64,000 nucleotides of DNA from Candidatus Heimdallarchaeota archaeon. Lineage in GTDB: Archaea; Asgardarchaeota; Heimdallarchaeia; Hodarchaeales; Hodarchaeaceae. The stretch spans positions 3,710,277-3,774,276 of the forward strand of contig CP070695.1 of assembly GCA_020353515.1 (NCBI GenBank), read 5' to 3'. The notes beneath the pieces are model-generated. The model worked only from the letters and a program-made list of their open reading frames with translations, searched no databases and was not told the origin of the DNA. The translations under genes were made by a program, and so were the position numbers. Of this stretch, positions 4,438 to 43,589 are shown in pieces. How positions within the stretch are numbered: the first letter of the stretch is position 1; every line of letters begins with the position of its first letter.

Positions 4438-4809
4438 TCACTCATTTTGATCCTTTATAGCTGAAAGAGTATGCTTTTGCGCCTGGTTATGAATTTCATC
4501 AAAAAATAAGGATATTTTCCATAAACCAAAAAGAATTAGTCCAATTCCTAAAACTAAAACCATGGTTGAACCTATATCTAATATGGGTTCCCATATGGGG
4601 TCTTGGATCTGCTCTTCCATCATAACTAAGAGTGTTTGAAATAGTAAACTGCTCACGCTAAAAAAAAATCCTAAACTAATAATTTTAATACTTGTACCTA
4701 TCGTTCCTTTCAGTTTAAACTGTTTAGCTATCGTTACAAGGCCAATCATCATACTAAAAATGTAAATCATTACTCTAAGAGCATTAAACTCTTCCATGCT
4801 TAACACCAA
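4438..4809 (-). CDS. Small 3-TM membrane protein, probably co-transcribed with the longin-wHTH gene
   Basis: Three hydrophobic segments; 6-bp gap to downstream gene. Confidence 0.7.
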   Translation of the reverse strand: MVLSMEEFNALRVMIYIFSMMIGLVTIAKQFKLKGTIGTSIKIISLGFFFSVSSLLFQTLLVMMEEQIQDPIWEPILDIGSTMVLVLGIGLILFGLWKISLFFDEIHNQAQKHTLSAIKDQNE

Positions 4810-5001
4810 CTAAGGATTATAGAATATTATTAAAAATAAGAATTGTGTTAAATATTATATCCTTTAATTTTTGGGTAAAGATTAACCCTTTTTTCTTTCA
4901 TCCTCGTTTTAACTATTCTTCGATTTTTTTAGAGGTAATTACATTAAGTTAACATAATTTGTTTTATTTGAATCCATTCTCATGTACCTTATTTATATCC
5001 G

Positions 5002-5886
5002 GTGTATTTGTTGTCTAGACATTATTTTTTTCTTAAAGTGATTGTAGTTTTTTTACTTGCTGGACTAATTAGTAGTTTCATAATCAATCCTGTGTCAGGT
5101 TTATATTATGAAACTAAAGTGAAAAAGGGAGAGAGGATAGTTTACAAAAGACACGATTATAATTATAGTTCTCAATCATGGGAATCTTGGTCTTACCTGA
5201 TGTATGAGATCGTTTCATTCAAGGATCATTCCTTTAATGGAATGACTGAGACTACTATTGAAGCTAAGCGTTGGACAAGTAAAGATTCTACCCACTGGAT
5301 CCAAATTCCTTTTCAAAATTACGACATAGATGTGAATTCTCCAGAAAAATCATCACCAATTGGGGTTATAGCACATTTAACCAAAATACCAATTAAATTT
5401 TCTGTAACAATCGATAGCGAGGATCTTATCATCCGCTCTGGTATTAAGATAGAAGATTTCTTAGATGAAATAGAATCTATGATAGAAACACTATCAGAAG
5501 GAGACGACGAATTAAGAATTAATCCCATAAATGACGGTTATGGTATAAATCTGATAGTAGTCCGATGTGGATGTGCCATAGAAGGAGGAGTGGGGAAGAG
5601 TGTTCGTAATATCACGTATAATTCACGTGGTGTATTACAAAGCTTTTATTTCGACGATAAAACGAATTTTGGGCCTGATTCAGAAGCAGTAGAGACGAAA
5701 TATGAGCAATTCTTAGTCGAAGACATTGAATTTAACAAAACAACATTTGAAAATCTGAGTATCAGTGGGGGAGACGTCTCTCTTACAACGTTATCTGATC
5801 CAGAAGTGACTCCTTATAGCGCAGTATTCACCCTCTTCAGCCTATTAATTATCATAATCTCTCGAAGACGACTTTATTCAACCTAA
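5002..5886 (+). CDS. Secreted/surface protein with C-terminal TM+basic anchor
   Basis: N-terminal signal peptide; ends ...VTPYSAVFTLFSLLIIIISRRRLYST. Confidence 0.75.
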   Translation: MYLLSRHYFFLKVIVVFLLAGLISSFIINPVSGLYYETKVKKGERIVYKRHDYNYSSQSWESWSYLMYEIVSFKDHSFNGMTETTIEAKRWTSKDSTHWIQIPFQNYDIDVNSPEKSSPIGVIAHLTKIPIKFSVTIDSEDLIIRSGIKIEDFLDEIESMIETLSEGDDELRINPINDGYGINLIVVRCGCAIEGGVGKSVRNITYNSRGVLQSFYFDDKTNFGPDSEAVETKYEQFLVEDIEFNKTTFENLSISGGDVSLTTLSDPEVTPYSAVFTLFSLLIIIISRRRLYST

Positions 5887-6366
5887 TTGGTTTCTGGCTT
5901 TCAATAACTCCTTTGCAAGAATGGCTGCATCAATAATTGGTTCGTAACCTGTACAACGACATAAGTGCCCTTCAAGTTTAGATTTAATTTCCTCTTCTGA
6001 AACATTGGGATTTTTCTCATAAAGACCATAAAGCTCCATAATGTACCCTGGAGTACAGAACCCACATTGGATGGCAGTCGTTTTAATGAAAGCTTGCTGG
6101 ATAGGATGTAATTCGTCATCAGGCAATCTAGGAGATATTCCTTCTATTGTAATAATATTGGTCCCATTTAACAGTTTAGCCCGTATATGACAGGATCTAA
6201 CTGCATCACCGTCCATGATCACAGTACATGCACCACAGTGGTTCTGGCTGCATCCATTCTTAGTTCCTGTTAATCCAAGTTTTTCTCGTAAAATAAATAA
6301 CAAAGAATCTTTGGGATCGACTTCTAATGTGTATTTTTGACCATTCACGGTGATAATAATTTCCAA
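5878..6366 (-). CDS. Xanthine dehydrogenase/CoxS-family (2Fe-2S) subunit
   Basis: GTKNGCSQNHCGACTV and QCGFCTPG...LCRCTGY. Confidence 0.93.
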   Translation of the reverse strand: MEIIITVNGQKYTLEVDPKDSLLFILREKLGLTGTKNGCSQNHCGACTVIMDGDAVRSCHIRAKLLNGTNIITIEGISPRLPDDELHPIQQAFIKTTAIQCGFCTPGYIMELYGLYEKNPNVSEEEIKSKLEGHLCRCTGYEPIIDAAILAKELLKARNQLG

Positions 6367-6370
6367 ACCA

Positions 6371-8695: not shown

Positions 8696-8719
8696 TATGA
8701 ACCCTCAATTGTGTTCTTC

Positions 8720-8741
8720 CATTTACCATTAATGTTAAATG
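8720..8741. promoter_or_regulatory. 22-bp near-perfect palindrome (candidate operator) between divergent Mo-hydroxylase and ACAD-fdrA operons
   Basis: CATTTACCATT|AATGTTAAATG, 10 of 11 positions self-complementary; TTTTTAAA TATA-like box at ~8755. Confidence 0.5.
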
Positions 8742-8804
8742 TTCTATCAAGACCTTTTTAAAAGGCTAATGCCCACCATGTTATTCTGATGAACCTAATG
8801 GTAG

Positions 8805-10061
8805 ATGAATATGTTTGACGTTTTACTTAATGAAAAAGAAACTGAATTGAAATATCAAACCAGAGAATTTGTTAAAAGCATTCCCTCATCTTGGCTCCGA
8901 AAAATGGATCGTGAGGAAATTCAGTACCCCACAGATTATGTAAAGAAGTTGGGAAAAGAAGAATTACTGGGAGTACGATTTCCCTCTAAATATGGAGGTA
9001 AAAACCTTGGATGGGTTGCGGAAACAGCAGCTATAGAAGAAATTGGTGTATTGGGCCCAAGTTTGGGGTGTTTATACTCTCTAGTTAGTATTGTTGGGGA
9101 AGCTATTCATCATTATGGAAATGAAGACCAAAAGAAGAAATACTTAGAACCAATAATAAAAGGAAAATTATTTTGTGCTGAAGCTCTGACAGAACCGAGA
9201 GGAGGTTCTGACTTCTTTGGCGCTACTTGTATTGCTGAAAAACAGGGTGATGATTTCATTCTTAATGGCCAGAAACGTTTTGTAGTGGGGTCAGAGGGAG
9301 CTGATTTCTTCCTTGTATATGCAAAGACCGATTTAAAAGCAATAGATCCCAAGAAATCAATAAGTACCTTTATTGTTCAACGAGATAAAGGAGTAGAGGT
9401 AAAACACGTTTACGGCCTGATGGGAAGCCGCGGAGGAGGCACGGGAAGAATAAACTTCAATAATGTGGAGGTTCCAGGCGAAAATTTGGTTGGAGAGATC
9501 AATCAAGGTGGAGAGATCTTCAATCAGATGATGATTCCTGAACGAATGACTAGTGCTTCAGGTGCCATTGGATCAGCAAGAGCTGGATTAGAGGTCGCAG
9601 CAAAATATAGTAATCGTCGAAAAGCATTTGGACAAGTAATTAGGAAATTTCAAGCGGTCAGTTTTAAACTTGCAGATAGTGTCACTCTTCTTGATGCAGC
9701 AAGATCATTGATCTATAGCACGGCAAGTACAATCGACGCCAATCAGGGAATAACTTCTGGGAATATTCGCCGTATGGTTTCCGAAAGTAAAAAATTTGCT
9801 ACTGATGCTGCTTGGGAGGTTATTAATCATGCCATGCAAATAATGGGAGGAATCGGGTATACCAATGTGTATCCAGTAGAAAGATTACTGAGAGACATTA
9901 GACTGATGAGCATTTGGACTGGAACAAATGAAATAATGAATCTCTTAATCCAACATGAATATTATCGTGAGCTTCTTGGACAACCTGAGAATTTAATTCC
10001 TCGAAATGTCGAGGAAGATGCTGTTGGAGCTGAATATGCGGAAGAAAAGGTCTTTGAGTGA
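8805..10061 (+). CDS. Acyl-CoA dehydrogenase (IVD/LCAD-type catalytic Glu placement)
   Basis: [40 protein letters not shown]; IWTGTNEI lacks the MCAD Glu while PERM supplies the IVD-type Glu. Confidence 0.92.
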
Positions 10062-10086
10062 CTCAATCTGTGAATGGTGAATTCCA

Positions 10087-11667
10087 ATGGCTGTTGTGAA
10101 GACACACATCATTCACCAACAATATCGTGATTCAGTTCAATTAATGCGTGCTTCTTCAGTTGCTAGTAAATTGGAAGGAATTAGAATAGCTTCGGTATTA
10201 ATGGGAACTCCAAAGAATAAACCTTTGCTAGAAGAGGTTGGTCTCCTTACTTCTGAAGCAATGGATGCTGGTGCAAATGACATTATTATATCAATCAAAG
10301 CATCCACGGAAGTATTTGCAAATGAAGCTATTAAATTCATTATTGAGTACATGAATCAACAAGAGATAGATAAGGAAGACACTCTCAAAACTTACCGTTC
10401 AATAAGAGGTGCAATCACAGGAATCCCTGAAGCCAATTTAACTGTTATTTCTGTACCAGGTGAATATGCAGCCCGTGAAACTCGTCTTGCATTAGAACAA
10501 AATCTCAATGTTATGCTATTCTCGGACAATGTATCGTTAGAAGATGAGATCGCGTTAAAGAAGTATGCTCATGAAAAAGGACTCATTGTAATGGGGCCTG
10601 ATTGTGGAACAGCAATGATCAAGAACATTGGGTTAGGATTTGCAAATGTAGTTTCCCCAGGGCCAATTGGGATTGTTGCAGCATCAGGGACAGGTACACA
10701 AGAAGTAATGGTTCTATGTCATCGTATAGGTGTTGGGGTTACCCATGCAATTGGAACAGGTTCACGGGATGTGAAGGAAGCCATTGGAGGCATCTCAATG
10801 ATCGATGGGCTAAACGCCCTTGATCGAGATGAAAATGTTGAATTAATTCTTATTATTTCTAAACCACCAGACGAGAAAATCCTCCGTCGCGTGTTAGATG
10901 AAGTTAAAAGATGTCAGAAACCTATAATTATTAATTTCCTCGGAAAAAAAGCAGGTTATTGTGATCTTACTAGAAAAATTCTAACAGTTGACACTTTAGA
11001 AGAAGTTGCTTATTCTGCTAGTCATTTTATACAATCAAATGAATTAAAACGAGTTTCTGTAACCTTTGAAGATAAAGAACATGTAAAAAAGATTCTATAT
11101 GAAACACGTTCTATCTTGGTTCCTGAACAGAAATATATTCGGGGTTTATTTGCTGGAGGTACTTTTACATTTGAAGCTGCCATGATAATTTCAAATATTT
11201 TACCATCAACAGACAATTTATGGACGAATGTGAAGCTAGAGAGCACTAATCTTATTGATAACCCGTTTAGAAGTAAAGAACACACACTGATTGATATGGG
11301 ATCTGATGAATTCACTGTTGGAAAACCTCATCCTATGATTGATCAGACAGAACGTACAAGGAGATTTCTAGAAGAAATAAATGATCCTCAGACAGCAGTC
11401 ATTTTAATGGATTTCATATTGGGTTGGGGTTCGCATGAGGATCCAGTGATTGATATGCGAAAAGCATTTTCCCAATGGAATTCTTTAAATCGAAAGATCC
11501 CGATAGTTTCCCATATCTGTGGAACTGAACTCGACCCTCAAGATTTAAATAAGTCAATATCAGAATTAACTGCCAACGGGGTATATATTATGCCTACTAA
11601 TGCTCAAGCAGCTAGATTGGCAGCATTAATTGCAATCCGGAACGAAGGAACAAAAGGGGTTTATTGA
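10087..11667 (+). CDS. fdrA: FdrA/AllF-family acyl-CoA synthetase (SucD-like)
   Basis: YRDSVQLM, ISVPGEYAA, MLFSDNV, MGPDCGT, ASGTGTQE, GLFAGGT, DEFTVGKPHPMID. Confidence 0.9.
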   Translation: MAVVKTHIIHQQYRDSVQLMRASSVASKLEGIRIASVLMGTPKNKPLLEEVGLLTSEAMDAGANDIIISIKASTEVFANEAIKFIIEYMNQQEIDKEDTLKTYRSIRGAITGIPEANLTVISVPGEYAARETRLALEQNLNVMLFSDNVSLEDEIALKKYAHEKGLIVMGPDCGTAMIKNIGLGFANVVSPGPIGIVAASGTGTQEVMVLCHRIGVGVTHAIGTGSRDVKEAIGGISMIDGLNALDRDENVELILIISKPPDEKILRRVLDEVKRCQKPIIINFLGKKAGYCDLTRKILTVDTLEEVAYSASHFIQSNELKRVSVTFEDKEHVKKILYETRSILVPEQKYIRGLFAGGTFTFEAAMIISNILPSTDNLWTNVKLESTNLIDNPFRSKEHTLIDMGSDEFTVGKPHPMIDQTERTRRFLEEINDPQTAVILMDFILGWGSHEDPVIDMRKAFSQWNSLNRKIPIVSHICGTELDPQDLNKSISELTANGVYIMPTNAQAARLAALIAIRNEGTKGVY

Positions 11668-30820: not shown

Positions 30821-31735
30821 ATGTCCAAATACGATCGTCTAATAACACTGAAAGAGGCGGTGATGTTTTCTAATCATGCAGAAGAGAATATTCGACTTCA
30901 AATAGAGCGTGGGTTATTAAAAAAATATGATAAAAATGGAAAACTGCTGAATGATCCTTTAAGAGTGAAAGGCTTCTTTAAACTTTCTGAGATAATGTCA
31001 GTTTATAACATAAAAGATCCAGAAGAAGTTAGGAAAGAATTTTTTGCACGAAAAAAAAGTCCTGATAGTGCGAAAGACATTCTACCTGAAAATGTCATTG
31101 TCCTAAGTTCCTCTGAAATGAATAGAATGGATCACATTGTGGAGGGGAGTATTGATACATGGATTCTCTTTCCAAAGTACTCTTTAACTGAAAAACAAGA
31201 ACCTGTGACTTCCACTGAGGTCAATAAATCACCAGTTCTAAAAGATGTCTTGGAATATCTGAATCATTCTTTAAGAGTACTAAAAACTCAAGGAAATATC
31301 ATTATCCATGCAATTCCAAGTTATGCGCCTTATTTTGGTGTAAAATTAACTAAACTGGGCTTTTTCTTCAAATATTGGATTGTTTTCAATACAGCAATCC
31401 CTCACAAACGAAATTTTAGAAGATTTACACCCGTGGCTAATAGTATCCTTTATTATGTAAGAACTCCCAAAAACTTCAGAATTAATCGAGTTAGAATACC
31501 TTATCGTGTTTGTTCATTTTGTAATGAACCGTTAAAAGACTATGGGGGAAAAAAACACCTTAGACATATTGAGGGAATGGTTCTATCAGATATTTGGCAT
31601 TTTGAAAAAAAGCAATTAACTCCTGAAAATCACCTCCATTCTACAATTCTTAAACGTATAATTGATTTGTCGAGCACATCTTCAACCACCCTCTTACTTG
31701 CTCCTTTTGATGGAGAGAAACCTCATGAAGATTAG
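30821..31735 (+). CDS. N-terminal HTH plus degenerate beta-class DNA methyltransferase domain
   Basis: LITLKEA...IRLQIERGLLKKY HTH; motif IV reads FPKY, motif I reads APFDGEK at the very C-terminus; CSFC..KDYGGKK..LSDIW segment. Confidence 0.65.
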   Translation: MSKYDRLITLKEAVMFSNHAEENIRLQIERGLLKKYDKNGKLLNDPLRVKGFFKLSEIMSVYNIKDPEEVRKEFFARKKSPDSAKDILPENVIVLSSSEMNRMDHIVEGSIDTWILFPKYSLTEKQEPVTSTEVNKSPVLKDVLEYLNHSLRVLKTQGNIIIHAIPSYAPYFGVKLTKLGFFFKYWIVFNTAIPHKRNFRRFTPVANSILYYVRTPKNFRINRVRIPYRVCSFCNEPLKDYGGKKHLRHIEGMVLSDIWHFEKKQLTPENHLHSTILKRIIDLSSTSSTTLLLAPFDGEKPHED

Positions 31736-32522
31736 AAATAAGATAATCTGTGGGGATTGTATTAGTGAAATGATGAACCTCCCCTCTAACATCATAGATT
31801 TAGCATTTGCAGATCCTCCTTATAATTTAAATAAGGATTATGGTGTATATGCAGATTCTAATTCCCCTATTGATTATCTAGAGTGGACAGAGAAATGGTT
31901 ATCCGAAATATTACGATTATTGAAACCAGGAGGGTCATTCTACCTCTTGAATCTCCCAAAATGGGCCATTCATCATGCAGTGTTTCTAGATCAATTCTTA
32001 TATCGTCAGAACACCATTGCTTGGGATGCATTATCAACTCCACGAGGAAAGATAATGCCAGCCCATTATTCTCTACTCTATTACACTAAATCAAGGACAT
32101 ACACCTTTAACCAATTGACCTCCAAACATAATTGGACCCATTGCGCTCGTAGTAAGTGTATTCAGGAGCGAACTACTTCGAATTTGCCTGATAAACCTTT
32201 CTCTGACATTTGGACTAATATTTACAGAGTTAAACATCGAAAAAAGAGACATGTGGATCATCCCACTCAATTACCATTAAATTTCATGGAACGAATAATC
32301 CTAACATCTTCCAATAAGGGGGATCTTATTTTTGATCCATTTCTGGGAGTAGGCACTACTGCTATTGCAGCTAAACTACTAAAACGGGACTACCTTGGAA
32401 TTGAGATTAATCCTGAATATGTTCAAGAATCTCAGAAGAACTTAAAACAGATCTCTTTATTTCAGTCTCGTCTTGAATTCCAAAATCAACAACACCCATT
32501 GAATCTCGATAACTTTCTTTAA
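31725..32522 (+). CDS. Beta-class N4-C/N6-A DNA methyltransferase
   Basis: IICGDC, FADPPYN, HPTQLP, DPFLGVGTT, GIEINPEY; start ATG 31725 overlaps the upstream gene by 11 nt. Confidence 0.9.
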   Translation: MKIRNKIICGDCISEMMNLPSNIIDLAFADPPYNLNKDYGVYADSNSPIDYLEWTEKWLSEILRLLKPGGSFYLLNLPKWAIHHAVFLDQFLYRQNTIAWDALSTPRGKIMPAHYSLLYYTKSRTYTFNQLTSKHNWTHCARSKCIQERTTSNLPDKPFSDIWTNIYRVKHRKKRHVDHPTQLPLNFMERIILTSSNKGDLIFDPFLGVGTTAIAAKLLKRDYLGIEINPEYVQESQKNLKQISLFQSRLEFQNQQHPLNLDNFL

Positions 32523-32526
32523 TAAT

Positions 32527-34473
32527 ATGAGATTTAACGGACTTACTGATATATTAGCGGGAATACTTGTGAAATCCTCAGAAAGAAAAAAAACTTTGGG
32601 TATATATCATACACCTCCATCTCTGGCCCAATTTGTTGTTTGGTCTGGATTTCAACGGCTTTTTCAACAACAATTCCCTGAGCTAGGGTTAAAAGATTTG
32701 AAGCATAATTTTTTTTTGAAATCTCTCAATGAGACTTTAAACCTTTCAACCCGCAAATATATCCACGAATACATTAAAAACCTGAAAATTTTAGATTTAG
32801 GAGTCGGGAATGGCGCTTTTCTAATAGTAGCTGGTAAATTTCTTGAATCTGTATACCCTATAGAAGACGTAAATGATCTGATTGAATTAAAATTAGAATT
32901 ATTACAAAAGAATTTATTTGGAGTAGATAATAATCCTCAAGCGATTTCTTCATGTAGAAAAAATCTTATCACATGGATATTAGGAACCAATGAACCTGAT
33001 CAATATCTAAAGAAAACTAAAGAAATTCAACAATCTTTAGAGTGCAAAATCCGATTAGGAAATGTGTTACTTGGAAACATTACCCCAAATGCTCAAGAAT
33101 ATTCAAAATTTCTAAATGAAAAAGAAGTCTTCCACTGGCATGACGAGTTCCCATCGGTTTTTGATGGGAAAGGTTCAGGATTTGACTTAATCCTATGTAA
33201 TCCTCCCTATGTGACGAAAGATATCTCACCTGAAGATAACCGTCTTTATCGAAGGTTGTATCGAAAACAATTATTTATAAATCGCTTTAATCTCTATCAT
33301 CTTTTCTTTGCTCGTGTTTTTGATCTTTTATCTCCAAATGGAATAACTGTGTTTTTAACTTCAAACTCTGTACTCACAGATAGTTATAGTCAAAAAGTAC
33401 GCGATTTTCTACAAACTAGTTTTTTCATTGAAGATCTTGTAGATTTTGTGAGTCGAACGAAAATTTTTCCAAATGTCTTGCAAGGGACTTGTATCTTAGT
33501 TATACGGAAAAAAAATGGAGTACCCAAACCCGAAACAAGATTAATTAGAACATTTGATATGAAATCATTGATTCAAGGTGCATTTGTTGATGAATACATC
33601 CCGACATCACATCTATTTCACTTAAGGAAGATCATTCCTTCTCCGTTTCAAGAAACATTTCATATTTTGAAGCACTTACAAAAGACTTCTCCTCTACTGA
33701 GAAATATTTTCAGAATACAAAGTGGTGAAATTAGACCGGCTGATAAAAAAATACGACCGTATTATTACAAGGAGCTCCCTGAAAATCACAAGGTTTCTGA
33801 CTTTGATATTGTATTAAATGGAAAAAACGTGTCTCCATACTTAATTAATCTTAGAGAAAACCGTCAAAAGCCTAGGTGGTATAAAAAACCAGATTTCGCT
33901 GACGATTGGATCTTTAGAGAAGATCATGCCTTAATCCCCCGAATTGTTGTACAAAGGATTACTGCAAGAGAACAACTACGACGTATTATTGCTGGAAAGA
34001 TAACCAATCAACATCTTAAAATTAATAAGAGAATCTGGGTTGAAAACAATATCAACTACTTTCTTCTCAAACCTGATTTTCCAACTAATTGGATTTCGTC
34101 AGCTGAAGCATTATTAGGTATTCTTAACTCTCTATTGATTAACTGGTATATGCACCAGATCAATTTAACAGCTGCAGTTCCACCTTCAGACTTAGGTCTT
34201 ATTCCTCTTCCTCAGAAAAAGGCTGAAAACCATGAAAAAATGCAAATATTGCATCAAAAGGTTTTACTCATCCAAAAATTCCTTCAAACATACTCCTCAT
34301 CCTCAGAAATATTAAAACATTTATGTCCCCATTGTACATCTTCTGAGAAAATAAAACAACTTCAGTCAGAAATTGATAGCTTAGTTTTTCAGTTATATGA
34401 AATTCCACAAAATTATCAAAATGAAATAATACATCAATTATCTCAACATCACGAATATTTTGGTCATCATTAA
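32527..34473 (+). CDS. Gamma-class N6-adenine DNA methyltransferase (Eco57I/TaqI-like with TRD), no nuclease domain evident
   Basis: LGIYHTP, LDLGVGNGAFL, LFGVD, FHWHDEFP, FDLILCNPPY, LLGILNSLLINWY, IDSLVFQLY. Confidence 0.88.
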   Translation: MRFNGLTDILAGILVKSSERKKTLGIYHTPPSLAQFVVWSGFQRLFQQQFPELGLKDLKHNFFLKSLNETLNLSTRKYIHEYIKNLKILDLGVGNGAFLIVAGKFLESVYPIEDVNDLIELKLELLQKNLFGVDNNPQAISSCRKNLITWILGTNEPDQYLKKTKEIQQSLECKIRLGNVLLGNITPNAQEYSKFLNEKEVFHWHDEFPSVFDGKGSGFDLILCNPPYVTKDISPEDNRLYRRLYRKQLFINRFNLYHLFFARVFDLLSPNGITVFLTSNSVLTDSYSQKVRDFLQTSFFIEDLVDFVSRTKIFPNVLQGTCILVIRKKNGVPKPETRLIRTFDMKSLIQGAFVDEYIPTSHLFHLRKIIPSPFQETFHILKHLQKTSPLLRNIFRIQSGEIRPADKKIRPYYYKELPENHKVSDFDIVLNGKNVSPYLINLRENRQKPRWYKKPDFADDWIFREDHALIPRIVVQRITAREQLRRIIAGKITNQHLKINKRIWVENNINYFLLKPDFPTNWISSAEALLGILNSLLINWYMHQINLTAAVPPSDLGLIPLPQKKAENHEKMQILHQKVLLIQKFLQTYSSSSEILKHLCPHCTSSEKIKQLQSEIDSLVFQLYEIPQNYQNEIIHQLSQHHEYFGHH

Positions 34474-34491: not shown

Positions 34492-35961
34492 TTATTCTGA
34501 AATAAGACGCTTCCTCTTCCACAGTTTTCTCTTGAGGGGGATGAAGCTAATCGAAAATATAATTAGTAGCACTCCGAACCCCCAAGTCGCTGCACCATGA
34601 GGTATCTCACTAGAAGGATAGATAATGGATTCAAGTAAAATTAATTCTTGCACTGCTAATAGAATTTGTACTTGATCAAGAAGGTATTGCAAATTTTGAT
34701 CTTTGGAAGAAGAATAGAATCCAGAATTTGGAGCTTCTAATTTTTCAATTAACGTTCCAGTAATGTATTGACCATGACGGAGTCGTTCAAACAACACTTT
34801 ACACCGAATGATGACACTCTGATCACTTGCAAGAATTTCATCAGAATCCTTACGATTAGAACTATTATAATATGCGCTATAACTCCAATCCTCGTTGATT
34901 AAATGGTTTCCAATAAATGTATTTATTCGACTTATGAGGAGACTTACTGATGATCCAATATCAAACTCATTATTAAGCTTATTCAACGCAAGAATAAGGT
35001 TTCCTTGATGTTTTGAATAGAAGATTGGAGATACTTCAGATGAATTTATGTCAAAAAAATTAGGAATACCATTAGTTCTGTTTGTTAACTGATCGAGAGT
35101 TTCCACAGTTTGTCTAGCGTAATCAGATAACAGTGAGAGATTGAAAAGATTAGGAAAATTAACAGCATTAGAAAGAAATTCGATAAAAAGAATCTGGTCA
35201 CCCGCTAATCGAAAAGAATTATTGGGAGAATAACCTAGAGTGCTTGTTATCCTATCGATCTTCGGAAGTACTGTTTCCCAAAGGTATAAGCAAGAATTGT
35301 GAAAATTCTCAAGATTAAAAGTGTTTAATGGTATTTCTTCAGGCCTATAAACAAGAAAAGTTCTCAATAGTTTAATATGTAGCTCAGATGCATTGTCACC
35401 AGCATATGAATTATTCCATAGTGGGAATTTCTCGAAAAGAAGCTCTCTTCCAATATTCCACCATTTTGAACTAGCTTTAAATTGGTTGAAGTACCATATT
35501 AGATCTAAAACTTCAGTATCAGAAATCAGACGTGATATGTTAATAGAACCATCAATTATTATTGGATTAATTGTTGAATAAGTTGGAGAGATCATTTCTT
35601 CAATAACTATTTCCAAGTTTCTGGTTACCTGTTCTGGATCAAGTTCTTCTGGGATAGGTGTTGTAGTCTCGATTGATGGTTCAGTAATTTTAGTGTCAGT
35701 AGTTTCAGTAGTAGTATTGTTATCATTGTTATTTGAAAGTTGGTTACTCATGAGAGAAGCAAAAGAAAGAAAAGCAGTAGGAATGATTAGTAGGAAAAAA
35801 ATGCCAATGATTAACCGTGTCCTATTTTTCTTGGGTCGGAAAATAAGAGGTGATTTTCCTTTCTGCATTCGTGAAAGTGATTTTCGACTCTGCCTGATGT
35901 AATCCTCAAGTTCTTGTTCAGAAGGTCCCTCGAAACCTTTTTGACCACGAACCTCGCTCAT
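34492..35961 (-). CDS. Doubly membrane-anchored surface protein with divergent (alpha/alpha)-barrel-like ectodomain
   Basis: Basic cytoplasmic N-terminus, TM, N/T-rich linker, helical repeats (LAGDQ, LASDQ, LLDQ; GFYSS), C-terminal GAATWGF-TM-KRK tail. Confidence 0.6.
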   Translation of the reverse strand: MSEVRGQKGFEGPSEQELEDYIRQSRKSLSRMQKGKSPLIFRPKKNRTRLIIGIFFLLIIPTAFLSFASLMSNQLSNNNDNNTTTETTDTKITEPSIETTTPIPEELDPEQVTRNLEIVIEEMISPTYSTINPIIIDGSINISRLISDTEVLDLIWYFNQFKASSKWWNIGRELLFEKFPLWNNSYAGDNASELHIKLLRTFLVYRPEEIPLNTFNLENFHNSCLYLWETVLPKIDRITSTLGYSPNNSFRLAGDQILFIEFLSNAVNFPNLFNLSLLSDYARQTVETLDQLTNRTNGIPNFFDINSSEVSPIFYSKHQGNLILALNKLNNEFDIGSSVSLLISRINTFIGNHLINEDWSYSAYYNSSNRKDSDEILASDQSVIIRCKVLFERLRHGQYITGTLIEKLEAPNSGFYSSSKDQNLQYLLDQVQILLAVQELILLESIIYPSSEIPHGAATWGFGVLLIIFSISFIPLKRKLWKRKRLISE

Positions 35962-35968
35962 TTCATCT

Positions 35969-36790
35969 TCACTTCATCAAACCACACGACTCTAATAAAT
36001 TATTACAAAATTTCTCAATATCTTGTGAAAAAGAATGCTCTTTTTCTTTTAATACATAAATTCTTTCCGTTACGAAAGGGATCCGCCGAAAGGAGTAAAT
36101 AGGACGTATGGGAATTGCTTTTGGATTATTACTCAAATTCTCCCATATGATTTGAACATTCTCCTCGGCTACTTTCACATCCTCAGGATTCGGTTCAAAC
36201 GCAATATCTTCTTGATGCTCTATTTGATTCATAATTGCAAAGAATTCTACCCCCTCTAGTTTAGAGTAACATTCTGAAATTAACAAATTCAAACCCTTAA
36301 TTTCAGATTTAACTGGACGTGTAACAATCATAATTTTATCCGAAACAACTAAAGCATCAAGTGATCGAAAAGTGATACCAGGCATGCAATCTATGATCAA
36401 AAATTCATAAATCTGTGAATTGCAATAACGAATAAATTCAAATAGTTTAGCGAGAATTCTTCCTTCTCCATGTTGGGTTAGTTTTGACCGAACTTTGGGT
36501 TGTTGGAGAATCTCAATACCAGAAAAAACACAGTCAAAATTCGGTATATCCGTTGAAATTATAACATTTTCTGGTTCAATATCTCCAACTAGAAACTCAG
36601 TTAATGTTTTTTTCCCTGATTCTTCGATTAGGGAATCTGAAGGTAGATAAGATTGGAGTGAGGGAGCCCGAAGATCAAAATCGACCAGACACACCTTTTT
36701 GTCTAGAGTAGCTAATTTTACTGCGGTATTCACTGATAAAAGGGTCTTTCCGACACCTCCCCGATAGCTATGAAAGGTAATTGTCTCCAT
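35969..36790 (-). CDS. ParA/MinD family ATPase
   Basis: Deviant Walker A HSYRGGVGKT, VCLVDFDLRAPSL, FLIIDCMPG, IMNQ. Confidence 0.9.
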   Translation of the reverse strand: METITFHSYRGGVGKTLLSVNTAVKLATLDKKVCLVDFDLRAPSLQSYLPSDSLIEESGKKTLTEFLVGDIEPENVIISTDIPNFDCVFSGIEILQQPKVRSKLTQHGEGRILAKLFEFIRYCNSQIYEFLIIDCMPGITFRSLDALVVSDKIMIVTRPVKSEIKGLNLLISECYSKLEGVEFFAIMNQIEHQEDIAFEPNPEDVKVAEENVQIIWENLSNNPKAIPIRPIYSFRRIPFVTERIYVLKEKEHSFSQDIEKFCNNLLESCGLMK

Positions 36791-37210
36791 TTATTCATCG
36801 ACTCCAAGGGTTTTGTACAAGACTTCAGTAGCTTTACTATCAGGTGTCACTTTCACCCTTTTCTTCAGAATAAAGCCATTATCAGCTAAATAATTCAAGT
36901 ACCGAGATTCCAGTCCTCTACTACGTCCAGTCTCCAAAGCAATATCAGAACTTGTGACCCAATCATCCTTCCTCTGGATTGTTTTATAAGTAGTAAATAA
37001 TCCAGGCCGAGAATCTTGTAAATTTAATATTTCTAAGCTTGAAGGCATTATGGCCCTTTCCACCTCGTACGAGTGTTCAGAGCTCTCTAGCCCTGTTAAT
37101 TTTGCTAAAAAATTATTCATATTTGACAAAGAGCTTTCAATAGACATTAATTGGTGAGAAATTGATTTTATTTCCTTTAAAATGTCAATTAAGAGGTTAT
37201 TATCATTCAT
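36791..37210 (-). CDS. Coiled-coil plus winged-helix DNA-binding protein
   Basis: N-terminal heptads LLIDILKEIKSISHQLMSIESSLSNM; wHTH VTSSDIALETGRSRGLESRYLNYLADNGFILKKR; stop directly abuts the ParA ATG. Confidence 0.8.
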   Translation of the reverse strand: MNDNNLLIDILKEIKSISHQLMSIESSLSNMNNFLAKLTGLESSEHSYEVERAIMPSSLEILNLQDSRPGLFTTYKTIQRKDDWVTSSDIALETGRSRGLESRYLNYLADNGFILKKRVKVTPDSKATEVLYKTLGVDE

Positions 37211-37243
37211 TTTTACCTATTTTTCGGTTAGTTTTAACATCCT

Positions 37244-37277
37244 TATATACGTTGCGCAACATTGCGCAACGTTTATA
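37244..37277. promoter_or_regulatory. 34-bp palindrome with two TTGCGCAA boxes 10 bp apart, flanked by back-to-back TATA boxes
   Basis: TATATACGTTGCGCAA-CA-TTGCGCAACGTTTATA (15/16 arm match); TATATAA on minus at 37243-37249, TTTATATA on plus at 37272-37279. Confidence 0.8.
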
Positions 37278-37363
37278 TACCTAGATGAACTTTGATAATA
37301 AACGATGATATTTGTTGATAAAAGATAAAAATTTTGTTATTTATGTAGTCAGAGGAAGTAAAT

Positions 37364-37538: not shown

Positions 37539-38420
37539 ATGAAAATATGGTTGAAAAAACATCATTTGCTCATAATTACTTGTATAGGTATCCAATTTTT
37601 ACTTATACCTGCATTTGCGAATAGTAATAGTTCATTCATAAATAGTTTCTGGAATACTCTAGGTTATGGAGATTATAATGTATTAACGGATTGGTCAGAA
37701 GCAGGTAAGGTTGAATTTTCAATATTGGACTTTGCTGGATTTCTTTATATCAAAAATGATTATGAATCAATATACTTAGGAGTGAGGGTACTAGATGAAA
37801 TAGATAATCTGACTTGGAGAATAAATTTTGATGTGGATGCTGATGGAGGATGGGCTGAGGATGCAAAAGCATTAACTCTAAGAAATCAGATTTTTTCTTA
37901 TGATGATGAGTATTACCTCCAAAATAATCCAGAAGCATTTTCTGACGCTCAACAAGATGATTTCACCGCTTCTATGAGAACTTTCACCTCGGTTAATAGA
38001 GAAAATACAATCTTTGAATTGAAAATACCTCTGCAAACAAATGACCATCTACATGATCTACAAGTCCAGAATCCTGAAACAACAATCATTGGCATATCAA
38101 TGGATGTTGAATTAGACGATTCTGGAATAAATGGGACGTGGAAAGGTAGTTCATATCCCGATTATGCTAATGCTTCTAATTATGTTAATATTTTGTTTGC
38201 TGGGCCTCAAGATCGAAAGATTCCAGTCTTTGAAGAAGAGGAAGAACCACCACCAGAGGAAACAACAGAGCTTGAAGAAGAGACGACGAGTACTGGATAT
38301 GGTTACCCACCTGGTATGGAAAGAGGAGCAGCGACTTCATTTGAAGCTTGGATAGTGCTAATAAGCATTGCTTTTGTCACTATCCTAGGAAGCAAGAAAC
38401 GAAGGAGGGATATCAAGTGA
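37539..38420 (+). CDS. Secreted DOMON/CBM9-like beta-sandwich protein with C-terminal sorting tail
   Basis: Signal peptide; LYIKND..SIYLG, INFDVD.DG....D, FELKIPL; acidic Pro/Thr linker; GAATSF-TM-KKRRR. Confidence 0.6.
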   Translation: MKIWLKKHHLLIITCIGIQFLLIPAFANSNSSFINSFWNTLGYGDYNVLTDWSEAGKVEFSILDFAGFLYIKNDYESIYLGVRVLDEIDNLTWRINFDVDADGGWAEDAKALTLRNQIFSYDDEYYLQNNPEAFSDAQQDDFTASMRTFTSVNRENTIFELKIPLQTNDHLHDLQVQNPETTIIGISMDVELDDSGINGTWKGSSYPDYANASNYVNILFAGPQDRKIPVFEEEEEPPPEETTELEEETTSTGYGYPPGMERGAATSFEAWIVLISIAFVTILGSKKRRRDIK

Positions 38421-40099
38421 TAATCAAGAGAGTCACATCAATTATTGTGATATGTATCTTATTTGGCACATTTCTTCCGATAACATCAGCCAAAAGCTCT
38501 CCAGATGAAGAACATTTTTATGGTGTGATATACAAACAAGCAACTTCATTGAACACTAAATTTCTCCATAGTAAGGGAGCTCTTCAGGATCAACCTAAAT
38601 CTTCAGTTATTACTATATCGATGAACGCACTCACTGCGAGTACATTATTTGCAGAATATGATACTGGTGGATCAACAAATCTCTTGAATATTGCCCATCG
38701 AATTATTAATGCCAGCTCAAAGTATTTTAGGTTGAGTTTCCATAGCGACCGACGTGGTTGGGTTTCTTCCTATGATTTTACGAAAGAAACAGAAAGTTTT
38801 GTAAAAAGTCGAAAGTATACACATGACCAATTCTTGATGCTGGTAGGTCTAGCAAATAGCTATCTAAAATTAGCGGAAAATGACCCGAAAAGGCCTGATT
38901 ACTTGGAGGATTTTAATCAGACATACGAATTCATTGAAGAATACCTTTTAGATCCTAATGGCGGTTGGATTGACTCTCTTTTTACTTTTAATGAGACTCT
39001 ATATACTAAGAATAGATTCAAAATAGTAGAACATATTTGTTGGACCATATGGTCAGTTTTAAATTTACCAGAAAGCTTTAGCTCCCCTCTAACACTCCAA
39101 GAGCTTATCCAAATGGTTGACTTTTTAGATGCAAATGGGACACTTAATGGAGTAATATACAATGTAATAACTCCTGATGGTGAATCAACTGATAATGTGT
39201 TCAAATTGCGTACAAACGCGCTTTACGGAGTAATAAACTTACTTTTATACGAAAAGACTCAAAATAGCAGGTTTCTAAATCGGGGAAAAGTAGTTTACGA
39301 CTTTCTTGTAAACAATCTTTGGGACAGAGGCTTTAAGCTGTTTTTCGATGTGGTTGATGAAAGTGGACTATTACTAGTTCAAGGAAAAAGTTTAATTGGA
39401 AATGCACTAGCGTGCCTGTTATCAAGCCGCTTATGCAGGTATTTCCCTGAGAATTCAACTATAAAAAGCATTTTTGTACTTTCAAATGTTTATATGGAGC
39501 AGTATCTTAAACAAGCAGGAGTGTTCACCTATTATATCTCCTGCAGCACCGATGGTAATCCATTAACGAATCCTTTTACTCTTGAAAGTAATTTAATTCG
39601 ATTATGGCAGCGAATTAATACAATTCACGTAATTAATGGGTCATATTCTTCTTCGGTCTCAATTGGAGAAAAAATACAAATCGATCTAAATCTTGCGAAC
39701 CCAGACAACATTACATATGAAGTGATAGTCACGGGAGAGGAAATAGAACCTTACAATCTAACAACAACAGACTCTAATCCAACTTTATTGGTATCTCTGA
39801 GAAAGAATGCAAAAATTGGAAAAACAGAAATTAAGATCAAAGTTCAAGTATTAAATAAAAATATTGACAAAACTGACTCTCTTCCCCTGGTGATTGGTTC
39901 AGATCGAAAATTACCTCAAGGATTGGTCTACTTAGTGGCACTAGGCATATTAGCTTGCATGGTAATTATAGCACGTTACCCACCCCGAAATCTTGAGGAT
40001 CTTTTTACACGTTTGACTTCGATTGGTATAGCTGAAGAGCAACAAACTGCAGATGAATCCACTTCAGAAGAGGTAGATACTCCTCAAGGTGAGGATTAA
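38417..40099 (+). CDS. Secreted (alpha/alpha)6-barrel (AGE/GH76-like) protein with Ig-like domain, TM and acidic tail
   Basis: Probable GTG start at 38417 (GTGA overlap, GGAGGG SD) giving signal peptide MIIKRVTSIIVICILF; KYTHDQ, LDPNGGW, LLLYEKT.N..FL..G..VYDFL...LWD....FFD repeats. Confidence 0.6.
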   Translation: MIIKRVTSIIVICILFGTFLPITSAKSSPDEEHFYGVIYKQATSLNTKFLHSKGALQDQPKSSVITISMNALTASTLFAEYDTGGSTNLLNIAHRIINASSKYFRLSFHSDRRGWVSSYDFTKETESFVKSRKYTHDQFLMLVGLANSYLKLAENDPKRPDYLEDFNQTYEFIEEYLLDPNGGWIDSLFTFNETLYTKNRFKIVEHICWTIWSVLNLPESFSSPLTLQELIQMVDFLDANGTLNGVIYNVITPDGESTDNVFKLRTNALYGVINLLLYEKTQNSRFLNRGKVVYDFLVNNLWDRGFKLFFDVVDESGLLLVQGKSLIGNALACLLSSRLCRYFPENSTIKSIFVLSNVYMEQYLKQAGVFTYYISCSTDGNPLTNPFTLESNLIRLWQRINTIHVINGSYSSSVSIGEKIQIDLNLANPDNITYEVIVTGEEIEPYNLTTTDSNPTLLVSLRKNAKIGKTEIKIKVQVLNKNIDKTDSLPLVIGSDRKLPQGLVYLVALGILACMVIIARYPPRNLEDLFTRLTSIGIAEEQQTADESTSEEVDTPQGED

Positions 40100-40103
40100 C
40101 TGA

Positions 40104-43100
40104 ATGGTCAGCAAAGAATCTCCCCACAAATGTTCAAGCTGTGGGAATCCATTACTACCTCATGCAAAATTTTGCACTCAATGTGGACACAAAATACAGA
40201 TCGATCCTATTACTCCTTCGGTTCATAAGGAACCTGATGTAGAACAACCACCAGTTAAAGAATCTTTACCAAAAGAAGACATTATATCAGATGTCGAACC
40301 CTCTGTATCAATCTCTCGTGAATTAAAAACTACATTTGATCAGGGATTCGAACTTTTGGCCTCTCTTAGAGAGAATTTATCTAGTGTCATTGTCATCCTT
40401 GGGATTTTCAGTATCCTTGCTGCAGTCGCTTTTACTGTTATTGTGCTCCTACCAAGAGAAATTATTTCAGATATCGAAATACCACCCCTTGAAGGTTTTA
40501 TCTTTGATTTGTTTGTAATTTTCGGACTGATAGGCCTATTAGCAAAAGAAACATTGGTCTATCTTGGATATATCCCAAAGAAAGAGACTCTAGATAGATG
40601 GTTCTCATTTGTATTACTTCTTCTCTTTTGGACGAATATGATCACATTCAGTATTGGATTGGTAATAACTAGCTTGTTTTTTCAGATAGGGCTTGATCTT
40701 CCAGCAGTTTTTGTATTTCTTTCATTAATAATCTTCGTTATTGCCTTCCTTTACTTTAGACGATATCAAGAATCTCTATTTTCTTGTACCTTTATTATAT
40801 CTGTAATGAGTATTGTATATCTAGTACAATGGATAGCTCCTGTTGATCCCATGATATATACTACAGTAGTTTTCTTGGTAGTCGCTGGTGTTGTCATTAT
40901 CTCGTACCAAGCTAAAGATTTAATCATTTTTACTGGTTTATCTGTTTTACTTCCTTTAATGTTTCTTTCACCTTATCTACTAAGCAATTCTATTGTAATA
41001 GCTATAATCCTTCTATTGGTCTTATTTCCATTTGTAGAAATAACAATACAAAAATTAATATTGGATAAGGAGGAATTAAATTGGATTAAACCTCTCGGGG
41101 AGTTATCAAGCACCTTTGGAATGTTTAATGTTAGTTTTTCCGTCTTTTATGGCCATCTACTTCCAGAATTATCAATTTTGATACTAATGATCCCGGTATT
41201 AGGTTCTATTTCCTTGAAAGTTTTCTACTCGGATTTTCGGAGATTACCTCTAAGAGATGGAGCTACTATAATCTTTTTAGTATTCACATTAGTCTTTTTC
41301 GACTTTATACTTGAAAATTTATTGATATTATTTGGAGTCGCTGTACTTTTAGTTATATACTCTACATTTACTGTATTTGAATATGTAAATGTCCGACAAG
41401 AAAAGCTTCTACGTTATGTTGAACTCTTACTAATAGCATCTTTAGTTGTTGTCTCAATGACAAGACTACTTTTTATCTGGAAAATTTGCTTAGTACTCAT
41501 TCCTCTTTTCTCGTTATTAGTTTTAATTCAACAAAAGAAACCCATAAACTATCAAACTGCTCGCGGTTTTGTATTCGGATCGGAAGTCCTAATCTTATTG
41601 GCTTTCATACAATCTCCAGCTTTTGATTTACTCATCATTCCAATATTTTCCTTCATTGCCATAATAGGAATTATTATTTTATTTATTTTGAACAAAGAAG
41701 AAAGCAGAATTAGATATTCATTAGACCTGACGATTTTCTCATTGATTTTTGAAGCAACCTTACTTGTGATGATGCTTTGGACCGAAAGTAGTGTTGAAAT
41801 GCTTTATCCTGTAGTCATTCTTATTTTTCTAACAATTATGATTTCAATAACACAAATTCGACAAAGAATTACACCAAATTTCCTCTGGATTAACTCCAGT
41901 TTTATAATTTGTTTTGGATTAATGAGTTATTGGAACGAATTTGAAGTTATTTGGACGGTTTTTACAGTTTTTCTGACCGTCCTACCAATGTTATTTGAAG
42001 GATTTCTAATTAAAAACAAGGAAAACAATTCAATAACAGAAAGTACCATTAAAAGCAGAAATCTAAATATTTCAATATCTGCAATTGGTTTGGCCTTAAT
42101 AGTTTTTTTTGAAGAATTAGATCCAATAAGCCATAGTGTTATTTTCATAACAATTCCTATTATTTGGGTGGTTTTGTATTTTCTCGATAAACAATATTTT
42201 AATTCCTTGTCTGAGCTATTAATGATTATATCGCCAGGATTAATCTTTTCTTTTGAAATGTTACTAAAACAAACCATATTTACTCCAATTACAGACATTA
42301 AATATCTTTATCTGACATTACTGGCATTTTCTATTCCTGTTATATCATTACAAGTGAATCATTTCCTGAAAAGAAAAACGAAGGCACCTATTAATCCAAT
42401 TATCATTGGTACAACCCTATCTTCATTGATTATAATGATTGCTTTGTGGACTTACACACTCCATTCTACTGAATACTTATTCTTAATTTCTGGATTATTA
42501 TTGGCATTAATTGTTTCTACATTCCTAGTCAAATGGCAATATGAATCTATTCTTCTACTTCTAGTATCTTTCTTTCCCTCTACAATATATGCAGGTTTTT
42601 TCGATCTTCCTTCATCACTTCTTTTATATCTAATTCCAATCTTTCCTCTCCTATTAAACTTCGTAATGGGTCTCAAATATTTAAAGACTGACCTTTCAGT
42701 ATATTCACATGAATTTATTATGCTAGCTTATTTCGGAATATTAATCCTCTTTAGTCCAATAAAGCTGATTGAATACACGACATTCTTATTCGCTCTATTC
42801 CAGACCAGTTGGCTTTTTCTCGGATTGTTAAAACGAGTACTCAATCAAAAAATTCTAGTTCTAACGAATTTAGTAAACTCAGCTTTTGTACTTGTTCTGA
42901 TGGCCTTTATTGAACCTTTGATAACTGAATCTTTCCTCATAGAGCTTGGAATCAGATTTCCTCTTAGAACAACATTAATAGGTCTGATTTTAATTGTTGT
43001 CACCATAGTTATGCTCATTCACCTAGTAAGCTGGCAAATCAGAGAGCTAGAAACCGATCTTTCATATTTGATGGCTTTAATCCTGATTTTTAATAGCTCT

Positions 43101-43589
43101 GCATTAATTTTGTCAGCAATTCAGTTGACTCTTCGAACAACAGACATCTCTTTGACCTCTATTCTCTTTGGTATATTAATACTCTTCACAATTTTACTAA
43201 TTTCTTCAATAATATCATATATAGGCATTAAAAGACTTAAAAACGAGATTTCACTTGCCTGTATATATACTACAACGGCATGGGTGGTTTTATCATCATT
43301 TTTCTTCACAAATATTGAACTAGTTTTTCTCTGGCTGTTCTTTGGTCCTTTAATGGTGATTGTATTTCTAGCGAAACAGGAGAGAACTATTATTCTAATG
43401 GCTATTATATTCTATTTTATAGCGGGATTGAGATTAATAGAATATACTCTCGAGTTTTTAGTATCGGGAATAGCAGATTGGGTAACAATTCTTGGATTGA
43501 TAGTCTTTGGAATAGAATTAGTTTCATTAGGAATATATTCATCCATATCTGGGAAAAATAAAAAAACCACTTTGGTTCATGAAGTTTGA
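40104..43589 (+). CDS. Zinc-ribbon domain plus very large polytopic membrane protein (1161 aa)
   Basis: CSSCG...AKFCTQCG zinc ribbon, Pro/acidic linker, then ~1070 aa of almost continuous TM hairpins. Confidence 0.8.
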   Translation: MVSKESPHKCSSCGNPLLPHAKFCTQCGHKIQIDPITPSVHKEPDVEQPPVKESLPKEDIISDVEPSVSISRELKTTFDQGFELLASLRENLSSVIVILGIFSILAAVAFTVIVLLPREIISDIEIPPLEGFIFDLFVIFGLIGLLAKETLVYLGYIPKKETLDRWFSFVLLLLFWTNMITFSIGLVITSLFFQIGLDLPAVFVFLSLIIFVIAFLYFRRYQESLFSCTFIISVMSIVYLVQWIAPVDPMIYTTVVFLVVAGVVIISYQAKDLIIFTGLSVLLPLMFLSPYLLSNSIVIAIILLLVLFPFVEITIQKLILDKEELNWIKPLGELSSTFGMFNVSFSVFYGHLLPELSILILMIPVLGSISLKVFYSDFRRLPLRDGATIIFLVFTLVFFDFILENLLILFGVAVLLVIYSTFTVFEYVNVRQEKLLRYVELLLIASLVVVSMTRLLFIWKICLVLIPLFSLLVLIQQKKPINYQTARGFVFGSEVLILLAFIQSPAFDLLIIPIFSFIAIIGIIILFILNKEESRIRYSLDLTIFSLIFEATLLVMMLWTESSVEMLYPVVILIFLTIMISITQIRQRITPNFLWINSSFIICFGLMSYWNEFEVIWTVFTVFLTVLPMLFEGFLIKNKENNSITESTIKSRNLNISISAIGLALIVFFEELDPISHSVIFITIPIIWVVLYFLDKQYFNSLSELLMIISPGLIFSFEMLLKQTIFTPITDIKYLYLTLLAFSIPVISLQVNHFLKRKTKAPINPIIIGTTLSSLIIMIALWTYTLHSTEYLFLISGLLLALIVSTFLVKWQYESILLLLVSFFPSTIYAGFFDLPSSLLLYLIPIFPLLLNFVMGLKYLKTDLSVYSHEFIMLAYFGILILFSPIKLIEYTTFLFALFQTSWLFLGLLKRVLNQKILVLTNLVNSAFVLVLMAFIEPLITESFLIELGIRFPLRTTLIGLILIVVTIVMLIHLVSWQIRELETDLSYLMALILIFNSSALILSAIQLTLRTTDISLTSILFGILILFTILLISSIISYIGIKRLKNEISLACIYTTTAWVVLSSFFFTNIELVFLWLFFGPLMVIVFLAKQERTIILMAIIFYFIAGLRLIEYTLEFLVSGIADWVTILGLIVFGIELVSLGIYSSISGKNKKTTLVHEV

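Follow-up and report, generated by a model that had tools for sequence, protein, structure and literature searches.

What is a ParA/MinD-type ATPase for when its gene is joined, stop codon to start codon, to that of a small winged-helix protein, and a single palindrome lies upstream of the pair? The question is raised by a locus in a stretch of 64,000 nucleotides (nt) from a Candidatus Heimdallarchaeota archaeon (contig CP070695.1, positions 3,710,277 to 3,774,276), which is referred to here as the window and numbered from its first base. A preliminary description of the locus had proposed a new archaeal partition or positioning module resembling SegAB of Sulfolobus and AspA-ParB-ParA of pNOB8 or, at minimum, an autoregulated MinD operon. 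The module is a lineage-specific, three-gene variant of a computationally described archaeal pair, in which a winged helix-turn-helix (wHTH) gene is coupled to an ATPase gene. Its genes all lie on the minus strand and encode, in the order in which they are read, a coiled-coil and winged-helix protein of 139 amino acids (aa) (36791..37210), which is a PwHTH-type partner and a predicted operator-binding autoregulator; a 273-aa ATPase of the MinD/ParA fold with the Walker A motif HSYRGGVGKT (35969..36790); and a 489-aa membrane protein (34492..35961), which belongs to the unit and was absent from the preliminary description. The TAA of the wHTH gene (36793-36791) directly abuts the ATG of the ATPase gene (36790) in the same frame, as had been described, and the membrane protein gene starts 7 nt after the ATPase stop. 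The reading that we favour, and to which we would give about an even chance, is that of an envelope-linked, ATPase-gated autoregulatory circuit in which the wHTH protein, the ATPase and the membrane protein form one unit under the control of its first product.

The site upstream of the wHTH gene

The palindrome is present where it had been reported, separated from the ATG of the wHTH gene by 33 nt, and consists of two 16-nt arms (37244-37259 and 37262-37277, 94% complementary) around a 2-nt spacer, for a total of 34 bp. Its core, the 24-mer ACGTTGCGCAACATTGCGCAACGT (37249-37272, i.e., ACGTTGCGCAAC-A-TTGCGCAACGT), is the predicted operator, a near-palindrome without assigned strand that holds two TTGCGCAA boxes (37252-37259 and 37262-37269) at a centre-to-centre distance of 10 bp. 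A proximal TATA box, TATATAA (37243..37249, minus strand), read from the sequence and with a presumed promoter role, abuts the operator 32 nt before the wHTH ATG, and the operator ends where this box starts, which is the position of the transcription factor B (TFB) recognition element (BRE). None of 100 dinucleotide shuffles yielded the 24-mer within 3 mismatches, and no other 24-mer within 5 mismatches occurs in the whole genome (4,943,496 bp, a single contig). The genome-wide distribution of the box, which had been put forward as a check on a partition role, came down to the one double-box site: the 4.94-Mb genome holds no other double TTGCGCAA box with 2 or fewer mismatches, and single boxes are not enriched in it (27 observed vs 38-54 expected).

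The site is conserved well beyond what surrounds it. A clear wHTH orthologue was found in 14 of 24 Hodarchaeales genomes, including that of the window, and in 11 of the 14 orthologous promoters the double box and a TATATAA or TTTATTAA element at the same position are nearly invariant while the flanks diverge; the wHTH proteins behind this footprint are only ~52-80% identical. The promoters of the Heimdallarchaeaceae carry another inverted repeat, ATATCAA..TCGATAT, at the same TATA-abutting position, usually with a second copy ~70 nt upstream beside the divergent gene, and the recognition helix there is RSHNLESRYLRRL vs RSRGLESRYLNYL in the window lineage. Since repeat and recognition helix both differ, site and reader have changed together while the position has been kept. 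A single unique site, lying at the promoter of the operon that encodes the regulator, marks a dedicated autoregulator and not an array-type centromere, and the more cautious of the two earlier proposals, that of an autoregulated MinD operon, is well supported by the position, uniqueness and conservation of this site, to which the wHTH protein is predicted to bind.

The same features bear on a role in DNA partition or positioning, in which the double box would be the centromere and the wHTH protein an adaptor whose N-terminal helix stimulates a nucleoid-bound, ParA-like ATPase. Uniqueness would suit a single centromere, and the order of site, adaptor and ATPase is that of pNOB8 aspA..parA and of type Ib par loci, with the genes abutting stop to start; as in pNOB8, the wHTH gene comes first, the palindrome lies upstream of that gene, and a Walker-type ATPase follows. 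The absence of ParB, reported earlier, holds genome-wide, in that ParB_N (PF02195) has no match in the whole genome, whereas control genomes gave matches, and a canonical partner is thus lacking; furthermore, the pairing of wHTH protein and ATPase is ancient and widespread in Archaea, as a direct physical partnership predicts. In other respects the likeness ends. There are two boxes only, on the BRE/TATA edge, with neither arrays nor genome-wide enrichment. Unlike the pNOB8 system, the module has no bridging ParB, is chromosomal, with no sign of a plasmid or virus around it, includes a membrane protein gene, and has a wHTH stop that abuts the ATPase start. With SegAB it shares a Walker ATPase, a small protein of the site-specific DNA-binding kind and a site beside the operon (10.1101/2025.04.15.649018; PMC8682754), but SegB is a ribbon-helix-helix protein that is encoded after segA and binds multiple loci (10.1101/2025.04.15.649018), whereas the wHTH protein is encoded before the ATPase and has one site. 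Of the four Orc1/Cdc6 genes, the closest is 72 kb from the locus, and the cumulative GC skew shows no distinct extremum, which leaves proximity to an origin uninformative. Absence of the orthologue from several relatives whose genomes are 90-94% complete would also be odd for a machine that segregates chromosomes. To these points the ATPase adds its own.

The ATPase and its wHTH partner in other archaea

The ATPase possesses the motifs of its superfamily, namely Walker A, A' (DxD) and B, with invariant G11, G12, G14, K15, D37, D39 and D134, and matches the Pfam family AAA_31 (7.8e-23). It falls under the cut-off of every NCBIfam model: the top match is AAA_KGGVGR (67.8 bits vs a cut-off of 90); archaeal MinD, TIGR01969, scores 47.1 vs 201.75, and ParA_partition, NF041546, which aligns with the P-loop region only, 37.9 vs 180. 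Among solved structures, Pyrococcus MinD is the closest in sequence (1ion, expectation value (E) 4.2e-9), and SegA (7dut) matches over residues 4-65 only (E 1.6e-4). An AlphaFold2 (AF2) model (predicted local distance difference test, pLDDT, 86) has FlhG (4rz3) as its best match in the Protein Data Bank (PDB; E 1.6e-13, TM-score 0.74), and the structural ranking places FlhG, FleN and MinD first and Soj/ParA later, with pNOB8 ParA (5u1j) in 34th place; fold matches extend from E 1e-13 to 1e-9 and include FleQ-FleN complexes. FleN-FleQ and FlhG are thus the best structural matches, and they show that an ATPase of the MinD kind can modulate a regulator that binds DNA. They differ from the module in sequence (~17% identity), in the lack here of a flagellar or archaellum context, in that the window ATPase shows no evident amphipathic membrane helix at its C-terminus, and in the partner, which is a small coiled-coil wHTH protein and not an AAA+ enhancer-binding protein. 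Archaeal MinD (1ion/1g3q; Haloferax MinD4) supplies the closest solved sequence and is among the top structural matches, but the window ATPase is far under the TIGR01969 cut-off and belongs to a distinct, wHTH-partnered clade.

For partition, an ATPase nearest to MinD, FlhG and FleN, with weak matches to SegA and ParA_partition and an acidic isoelectric point (pI 5.1), is a poor candidate. The claim of a new partition module comparable to SegAB or AspA-ParB-ParA hence finds no specific support at a locus with one promoter-edge site, a MinD-side ATPase and a membrane protein in the operon; partition is possible but unsupported, the site provides no positive evidence for a centromere role, and we regard this explanation as improbable.

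Judged by its sequence, the ATPase belongs to a distinct HSY[KR]GG[VT]GKT clade that is always accompanied by a wHTH partner. The signature Lys, the first of KGGxGK[ST], is Arg in the window ATPase and in each of the 16 orthologue rows aligned with it, and Lys in paralogues and outgroups; the Walker A of the relatives reads HSYKGGTGKT, and the second Lys is kept there as well as in the window lineage. The ATPase of Ca. Heimdallarchaeum aukensis (L072, CP084166, 1097695-1104453) has HSYRGGTGKT, an independent Lys-to-Arg replacement in a clade that otherwise has Lys.

That the 139-aa protein is a coiled-coil wHTH protein, as the preliminary description had it, is borne out by its AF2 model (pLDDT 81, from 29 homologues), in which a helix (2-40) and a disordered stretch (41-57) precede a winged helix (58-134), and by the heptad signal of the N-terminal helix, whose a/d positions are 91% hydrophobic in one register, as expected for a coiled coil. 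A Foldseek search with the model returned only generic winged helices of the MarR, ArsR, TrmB and TFE types (E about 1e-3), and the protein and its relatives match no Pfam or NCBIfam family above threshold, the best being a sub-threshold TrmB. Its 79 homologues all come from the Heimdall group, and the names they bear, Hodarchaeales or Hodarchaeota, mark the organism as a member of the Hodarchaeales. Within the wHTH core, 35 columns are invariant in 29 sequences, and the N-terminal helix and linker vary. A search with the single sequence reached only 14 clusters; one with a profile extends to Bathyarchaeia (E 1e-15 to 1e-20).

The gene pair, whose lack of conservation would have told against the preliminary proposal, is conserved, being adjacent in every locus examined. 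In our survey of Asgard genomes, we refer to three groups: f1, which holds the window genome, f2, and f4, which includes Ca. Heimdallarchaeum aukensis. A profile search of 400 Asgard genomes found the wHTH family in 19 of 21 genomes of f1, in 2 of 2 of f2, in 23 of 31 of f4, and in few others. The ATPase gene follows the wHTH gene in 14 of 14 orthologue loci of f1 (that of the window and 13 relatives), and in almost every orthologue the two genes abut or overlap, stop codon to start codon; adjacency is also seen in all 11 f4 loci, both f2 loci, the paralogues that we term clade C and about 60 loci of other archaea. The membrane protein gene is present in all f1 loci with enough flanking sequence, the 11 f4 loci that were fetched all have the same three genes in the same order, and in one of the two f2 loci the start of the membrane protein gene is visible. 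Maximum-likelihood analysis with midpoint rooting unites the ATPases of the three-gene module in a single clade (100/100), in which f4 stands separate from a group of f2 and f1; the order within the clade follows taxonomy, consistent with vertical descent. The three genes have been co-inherited across Hodarchaeales and Heimdallarchaeaceae.

Beyond the Asgard archaea, when 185,579 species genomes were scanned with the ATPase alignment, hundreds of loci emerged; the 80 kept for study come mostly from Bathyarchaeia but also from Nitrososphaerota and others. In these, the gene for a ~125-aa protein of the same build almost always lies no more than about 20 nt upstream of that for an HSYKGGTGKT ATPase, and 61 of 72 upstream open reading frames match the Heimdall wHTH profile (typically E 1e-15 to 1e-20); the synteny check suggested earlier for Asgard archaea and Bathyarchaeia has thus found the pair in both. 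In many Bathyarchaeia loci a MobA-like gene lies ~100 nt downstream of the ATPase gene. The Bathyarchaeia loci (L081-L148) share a common promoter, TTTCGTAAGACTTAATAAA, upstream of the wHTH genes, and ~25-30 nt downstream of it a TGTACACGTGTA-type palindrome that, from its placement, may be an operator at the transcription start; if so, autoregulation across the family would be suggested.

Literature searches found no description of the wHTH-ATPase pair in Asgard archaea or Bathyarchaeia. The pair was named computationally in October 2026 as the ParA-wHTH system (Li, Burroughs, Aravind, bioRxiv 10.64898/2026.10.19.760177), a mainly archaeal combination of ParA with a wHTH protein that has an elongated N-terminal helix and is sometimes fused to V4R or profilin/longin-like domains (10.64898/2026.10.19.760177). 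The novelty originally claimed is therefore to be qualified; the operator, the membrane partner and the replacement of the signature Lys by Arg are new, and the preprint mentions neither Asgard archaea nor a promoter operator nor a membrane partner (10.64898/2026.10.19.760177). The module resembles the named system in the coupling of a ParA-like ATPase gene to a wHTH gene, in the long N-terminal helix of the wHTH protein (2-40, followed by the linker and the wHTH at 58-134), in its mainly archaeal range, in the presence of a longin-like and wHTH pair in the window genome (judged by eye) and in the Ser at the head of Walker A, which the preprint assigns to its PriB2 (MinD/FlhG) side. The ConB2 branch of the preprint is distinguished by Arg for the second Walker A Lys (KGGVGR) and a PG motif (10.64898/2026.10.19.760177), whereas the window ATPase keeps the second Lys and has Arg in place of the first, the signature Lys (RGGVGKT). 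A PG does follow Walker B (DCMPG), although its correspondence to the motif of the preprint is uncertain.

These authors suggest, by analogy only, that ParA-wHTH systems intercept invader DNA (10.64898/2026.10.19.760177), and the module could accordingly be a form of immunity against mobile elements, in which the wHTH protein would sense invader DNA, the ATPase would multimerise on it, and the receptor-like membrane protein would add the sensing of envelope perturbation, as in PCTM systems. The fit to the published description (an archaeal pair, an elongated N-terminal helix, longin-like fusions in paralogues) speaks for this idea, as do the patchy occurrence among close relatives, the three methyltransferase genes that adjoin the module here and in the relative G018 and lie on its other side in G017, and the parallel between the receptor-like third gene and the ParA-TM-ectodomain fusions of PCTM systems (TM, transmembrane segment). 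What makes us doubt it strongly is that the conserved, unique chromosomal target at the module's own promoter is a self site and not an invader site, and that the ATPase tree follows taxonomy, consistent with vertical descent, features in which the module departs from interception as proposed. The wHTH core, moreover, is strongly conserved (the 35 invariant columns) and fits the rapid evolution that the preprint describes for the wHTH less well than the variable N-terminal helix and linker do, an effector gene is lacking, the ATPase matched in PADLOC at the P-loop level only, the ConB2 signature KGGVGR is absent, and the Bathyarchaeia pair sits in a stable context beside the MobA-like gene.

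Other pairs occur in the window genome and its relatives. A second wHTH and HSYKGGTGKT ATPase pair lies at genome positions ~130553-131871 (L150: 926-1471, 1495-2244); its 181-aa partner has a ribbon-helix-helix-like N-terminus and a C-terminal wHTH, and its ATPase is on a long branch. In a third, at ~929831-932079 (L151: 726-1364, 1480-2337, 2321-2974), a MinD-like ATPase (SHKGGVGKS) has a wHTH protein on either side; the two are paralogues, each with the wHTH at its C-terminus and an N-domain that looks longin/roadblock-like when the sequence is inspected by eye, an arrangement that agrees with the profilin/longin-like variant of the ParA-wHTH system. The clade C cassette of Hodarchaeales (loci L022-L035) encodes a wHTH protein of 85-88 aa, a coiled-coil wHTH protein of 200-228 aa and an ATPase, without the membrane protein gene; it is not in the window genome and is found in about half of the relatives.

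The membrane protein and the genes around the module

From hydropathy and pI, the 489-aa protein comprises a basic cytosolic N-tail (1-48, pI 10.6), a transmembrane segment (~49-67), an ectodomain, a second transmembrane segment (~456-476) and a basic C-tail. An ESM Atlas model of the exact protein relates the ectodomain (~100-447) to (alpha/alpha)6 barrels of the GH88, AGE epimerase and pectate-lyase-like kinds (TM-score 0.5-0.7). Across f1 and f4 the best-conserved block is located in the N-tail, where it forms a cytosolic juxtamembrane motif, EL..Y[IL]..S[KR]K.[IL]..[LM][KQ].GK. A conserved basic N-tail is the kind of peptide by which partners usually engage MinD/ParA ATPases.

MinD4, FlhG and BcsQ position other envelope machines, and the ATPase might do no more than place or cluster the membrane (alpha/alpha)6 protein, with the wHTH protein a mere repressor that makes no contact with the ATPase. 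The resemblance of the tail to partner peptides, the structural closeness of the ATPase to FlhG and MinD, and the surface proteins encoded by neighbouring genes all suit such a role. It is nonetheless unlikely in our judgement: the pairing of wHTH and ATPase genes greatly exceeds the membrane protein gene in age and distribution, which makes the wHTH protein the primary partner, and no MinD-type C-terminal membrane-targeting helix is evident in the ATPase alignment.

If the site did serve partition, the membrane protein could be an anchor and the module a tether between chromosome and membrane. A ParB-less device of this sort for chromosome-envelope tethering or segregation, built from a unique site, a wHTH adaptor, a MinD-like ATPase and a transmembrane protein, with the operator doubling as centromere, is in our estimation a long shot.

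We also considered a BY-kinase (bacterial tyrosine kinase) with a transmembrane modulator of the CapA/CapB type, to which there are weak matches (4jlv, E 4.7e-5; eps_fam, 40.9 bits vs 108). This candidate was rejected because a C-terminal tyrosine cluster is lacking and the ectodomain has an (alpha/alpha)6-barrel fold in place of that of a polysaccharide co-polymerase.

On the other side of the operator, a divergent arm (37539-43589) encodes surface proteins of 293 aa and 583 aa and a polytopic membrane protein of 1161 aa; both the 293-aa and the 489-aa protein have a GAAT-like motif, a transmembrane segment and a basic C-terminal tail. We rejected this arm (p293-p583-p1161) as part of the unit: it is syntenic only in the closest relatives, G018 and G015, and for that reason lies outside the conserved core, and in more distant orthologous loci the divergent genes are unrelated to it. 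A second, opposed TATA-like box, TTTATATA (37271..37278, plus strand), was read from the far side of the operator and is possibly the promoter of the divergent surface-protein genes; it is TATA-like only in the closest relatives, those that share the right arm. Farther out, a distal AT-rich element with TGATAA/TGATAT repeats (37284..37319, no assigned strand) is kept in the five closest relatives, is similar to the Heimdallarchaeaceae type of operator, and may be part of a divergent promoter. Downstream of the module, three DNA methyltransferase genes, a dead/active pair and an Eco57I/TaqI_C-type enzyme, adjoin it in the window (30821-34473) and also in G018; in G017 the same three are found on the opposite side of the module, the linkage having been kept despite rearrangement. 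Their positions at the loci of relatives are 4767-6689 (L062) and 7208-10856 (L067).

Weighing the proposed envelope-linked circuit

From the observed anatomy and conservation, the uniqueness of the site, its co-variation with the recognition helix, and the co-inheritance of the three genes, we infer a circuit whose binding events and direction of regulation would be the following. The 139-aa protein, to judge from its anatomy, would dimerise through its N-terminal coiled coil, and its pair of winged helices, held on flexible linkers, would occupy the two TTGCGCAA boxes, which are one helical turn apart. Occupancy of the operator would control the access of TFB and of the TATA-binding protein (TBP) and thereby set the expression of the operon, in the simplest case by autorepression; in the window genome and its closest relatives the divergent surface-protein genes, with their opposed TATA-like box, may come under the same operator. 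The MinD/FlhG-like ATPase, probably made in a fixed ratio with the wHTH protein through the stop-abuts-start spacing, would act as an ATP-dependent dimer switch that binds its wHTH partner and, within the Heimdall lineage, the membrane protein as well, through the conserved basic tail that the latter has in the cytosol. By these contacts it would tie DNA binding and expression to the state or location of the surface (alpha/alpha)6-barrel protein. FleN, which acts on FleQ, offers one precedent, and another is offered by the basic N-terminal peptides by which other MinD/ParA ATPases are driven. We favour regulation because of the position, uniqueness and co-variation of the site and because the ATPase is nearest to FleN/FlhG, one a known modulator of a transcription factor, and we favour an envelope-linked, ATPase-gated form of it because the basic N-tail of the membrane protein is of the kind that engages such ATPases.

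Several observations weigh against this circuit. The TTGCGCAA boxes are missing from 3 of the 14 orthologous promoters (G016, G012 and G003), and the module is patchy within its genus-level group, in that G013, G014 and G019, genomes of 90-94% completeness, yielded no orthologue. Paralogous and Bathyarchaeia pairs occur without the membrane protein, and therefore the core function of the pair cannot depend on it. In type Ib plasmid partition systems, finally, it is normal for one site to be both operator and centromere, and autoregulation therefore does not exclude partition.

Whichever of these activities prevails, the module is a clean test case, with one regulator and one unique, conserved 24-bp site, a natural signature-Lys-to-Arg ATPase, and a membrane partner with a short, conserved cytosolic peptide. 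It could decide between regulation, DNA positioning and immunity for a pair that spans many archaeal phyla. The Asgard archaea are the archaea closest to eukaryotes and their cell biology is almost wholly unexplored, and this module would show whether those of the Heimdall group link their envelope to their DNA by means of a MinD-like switch.

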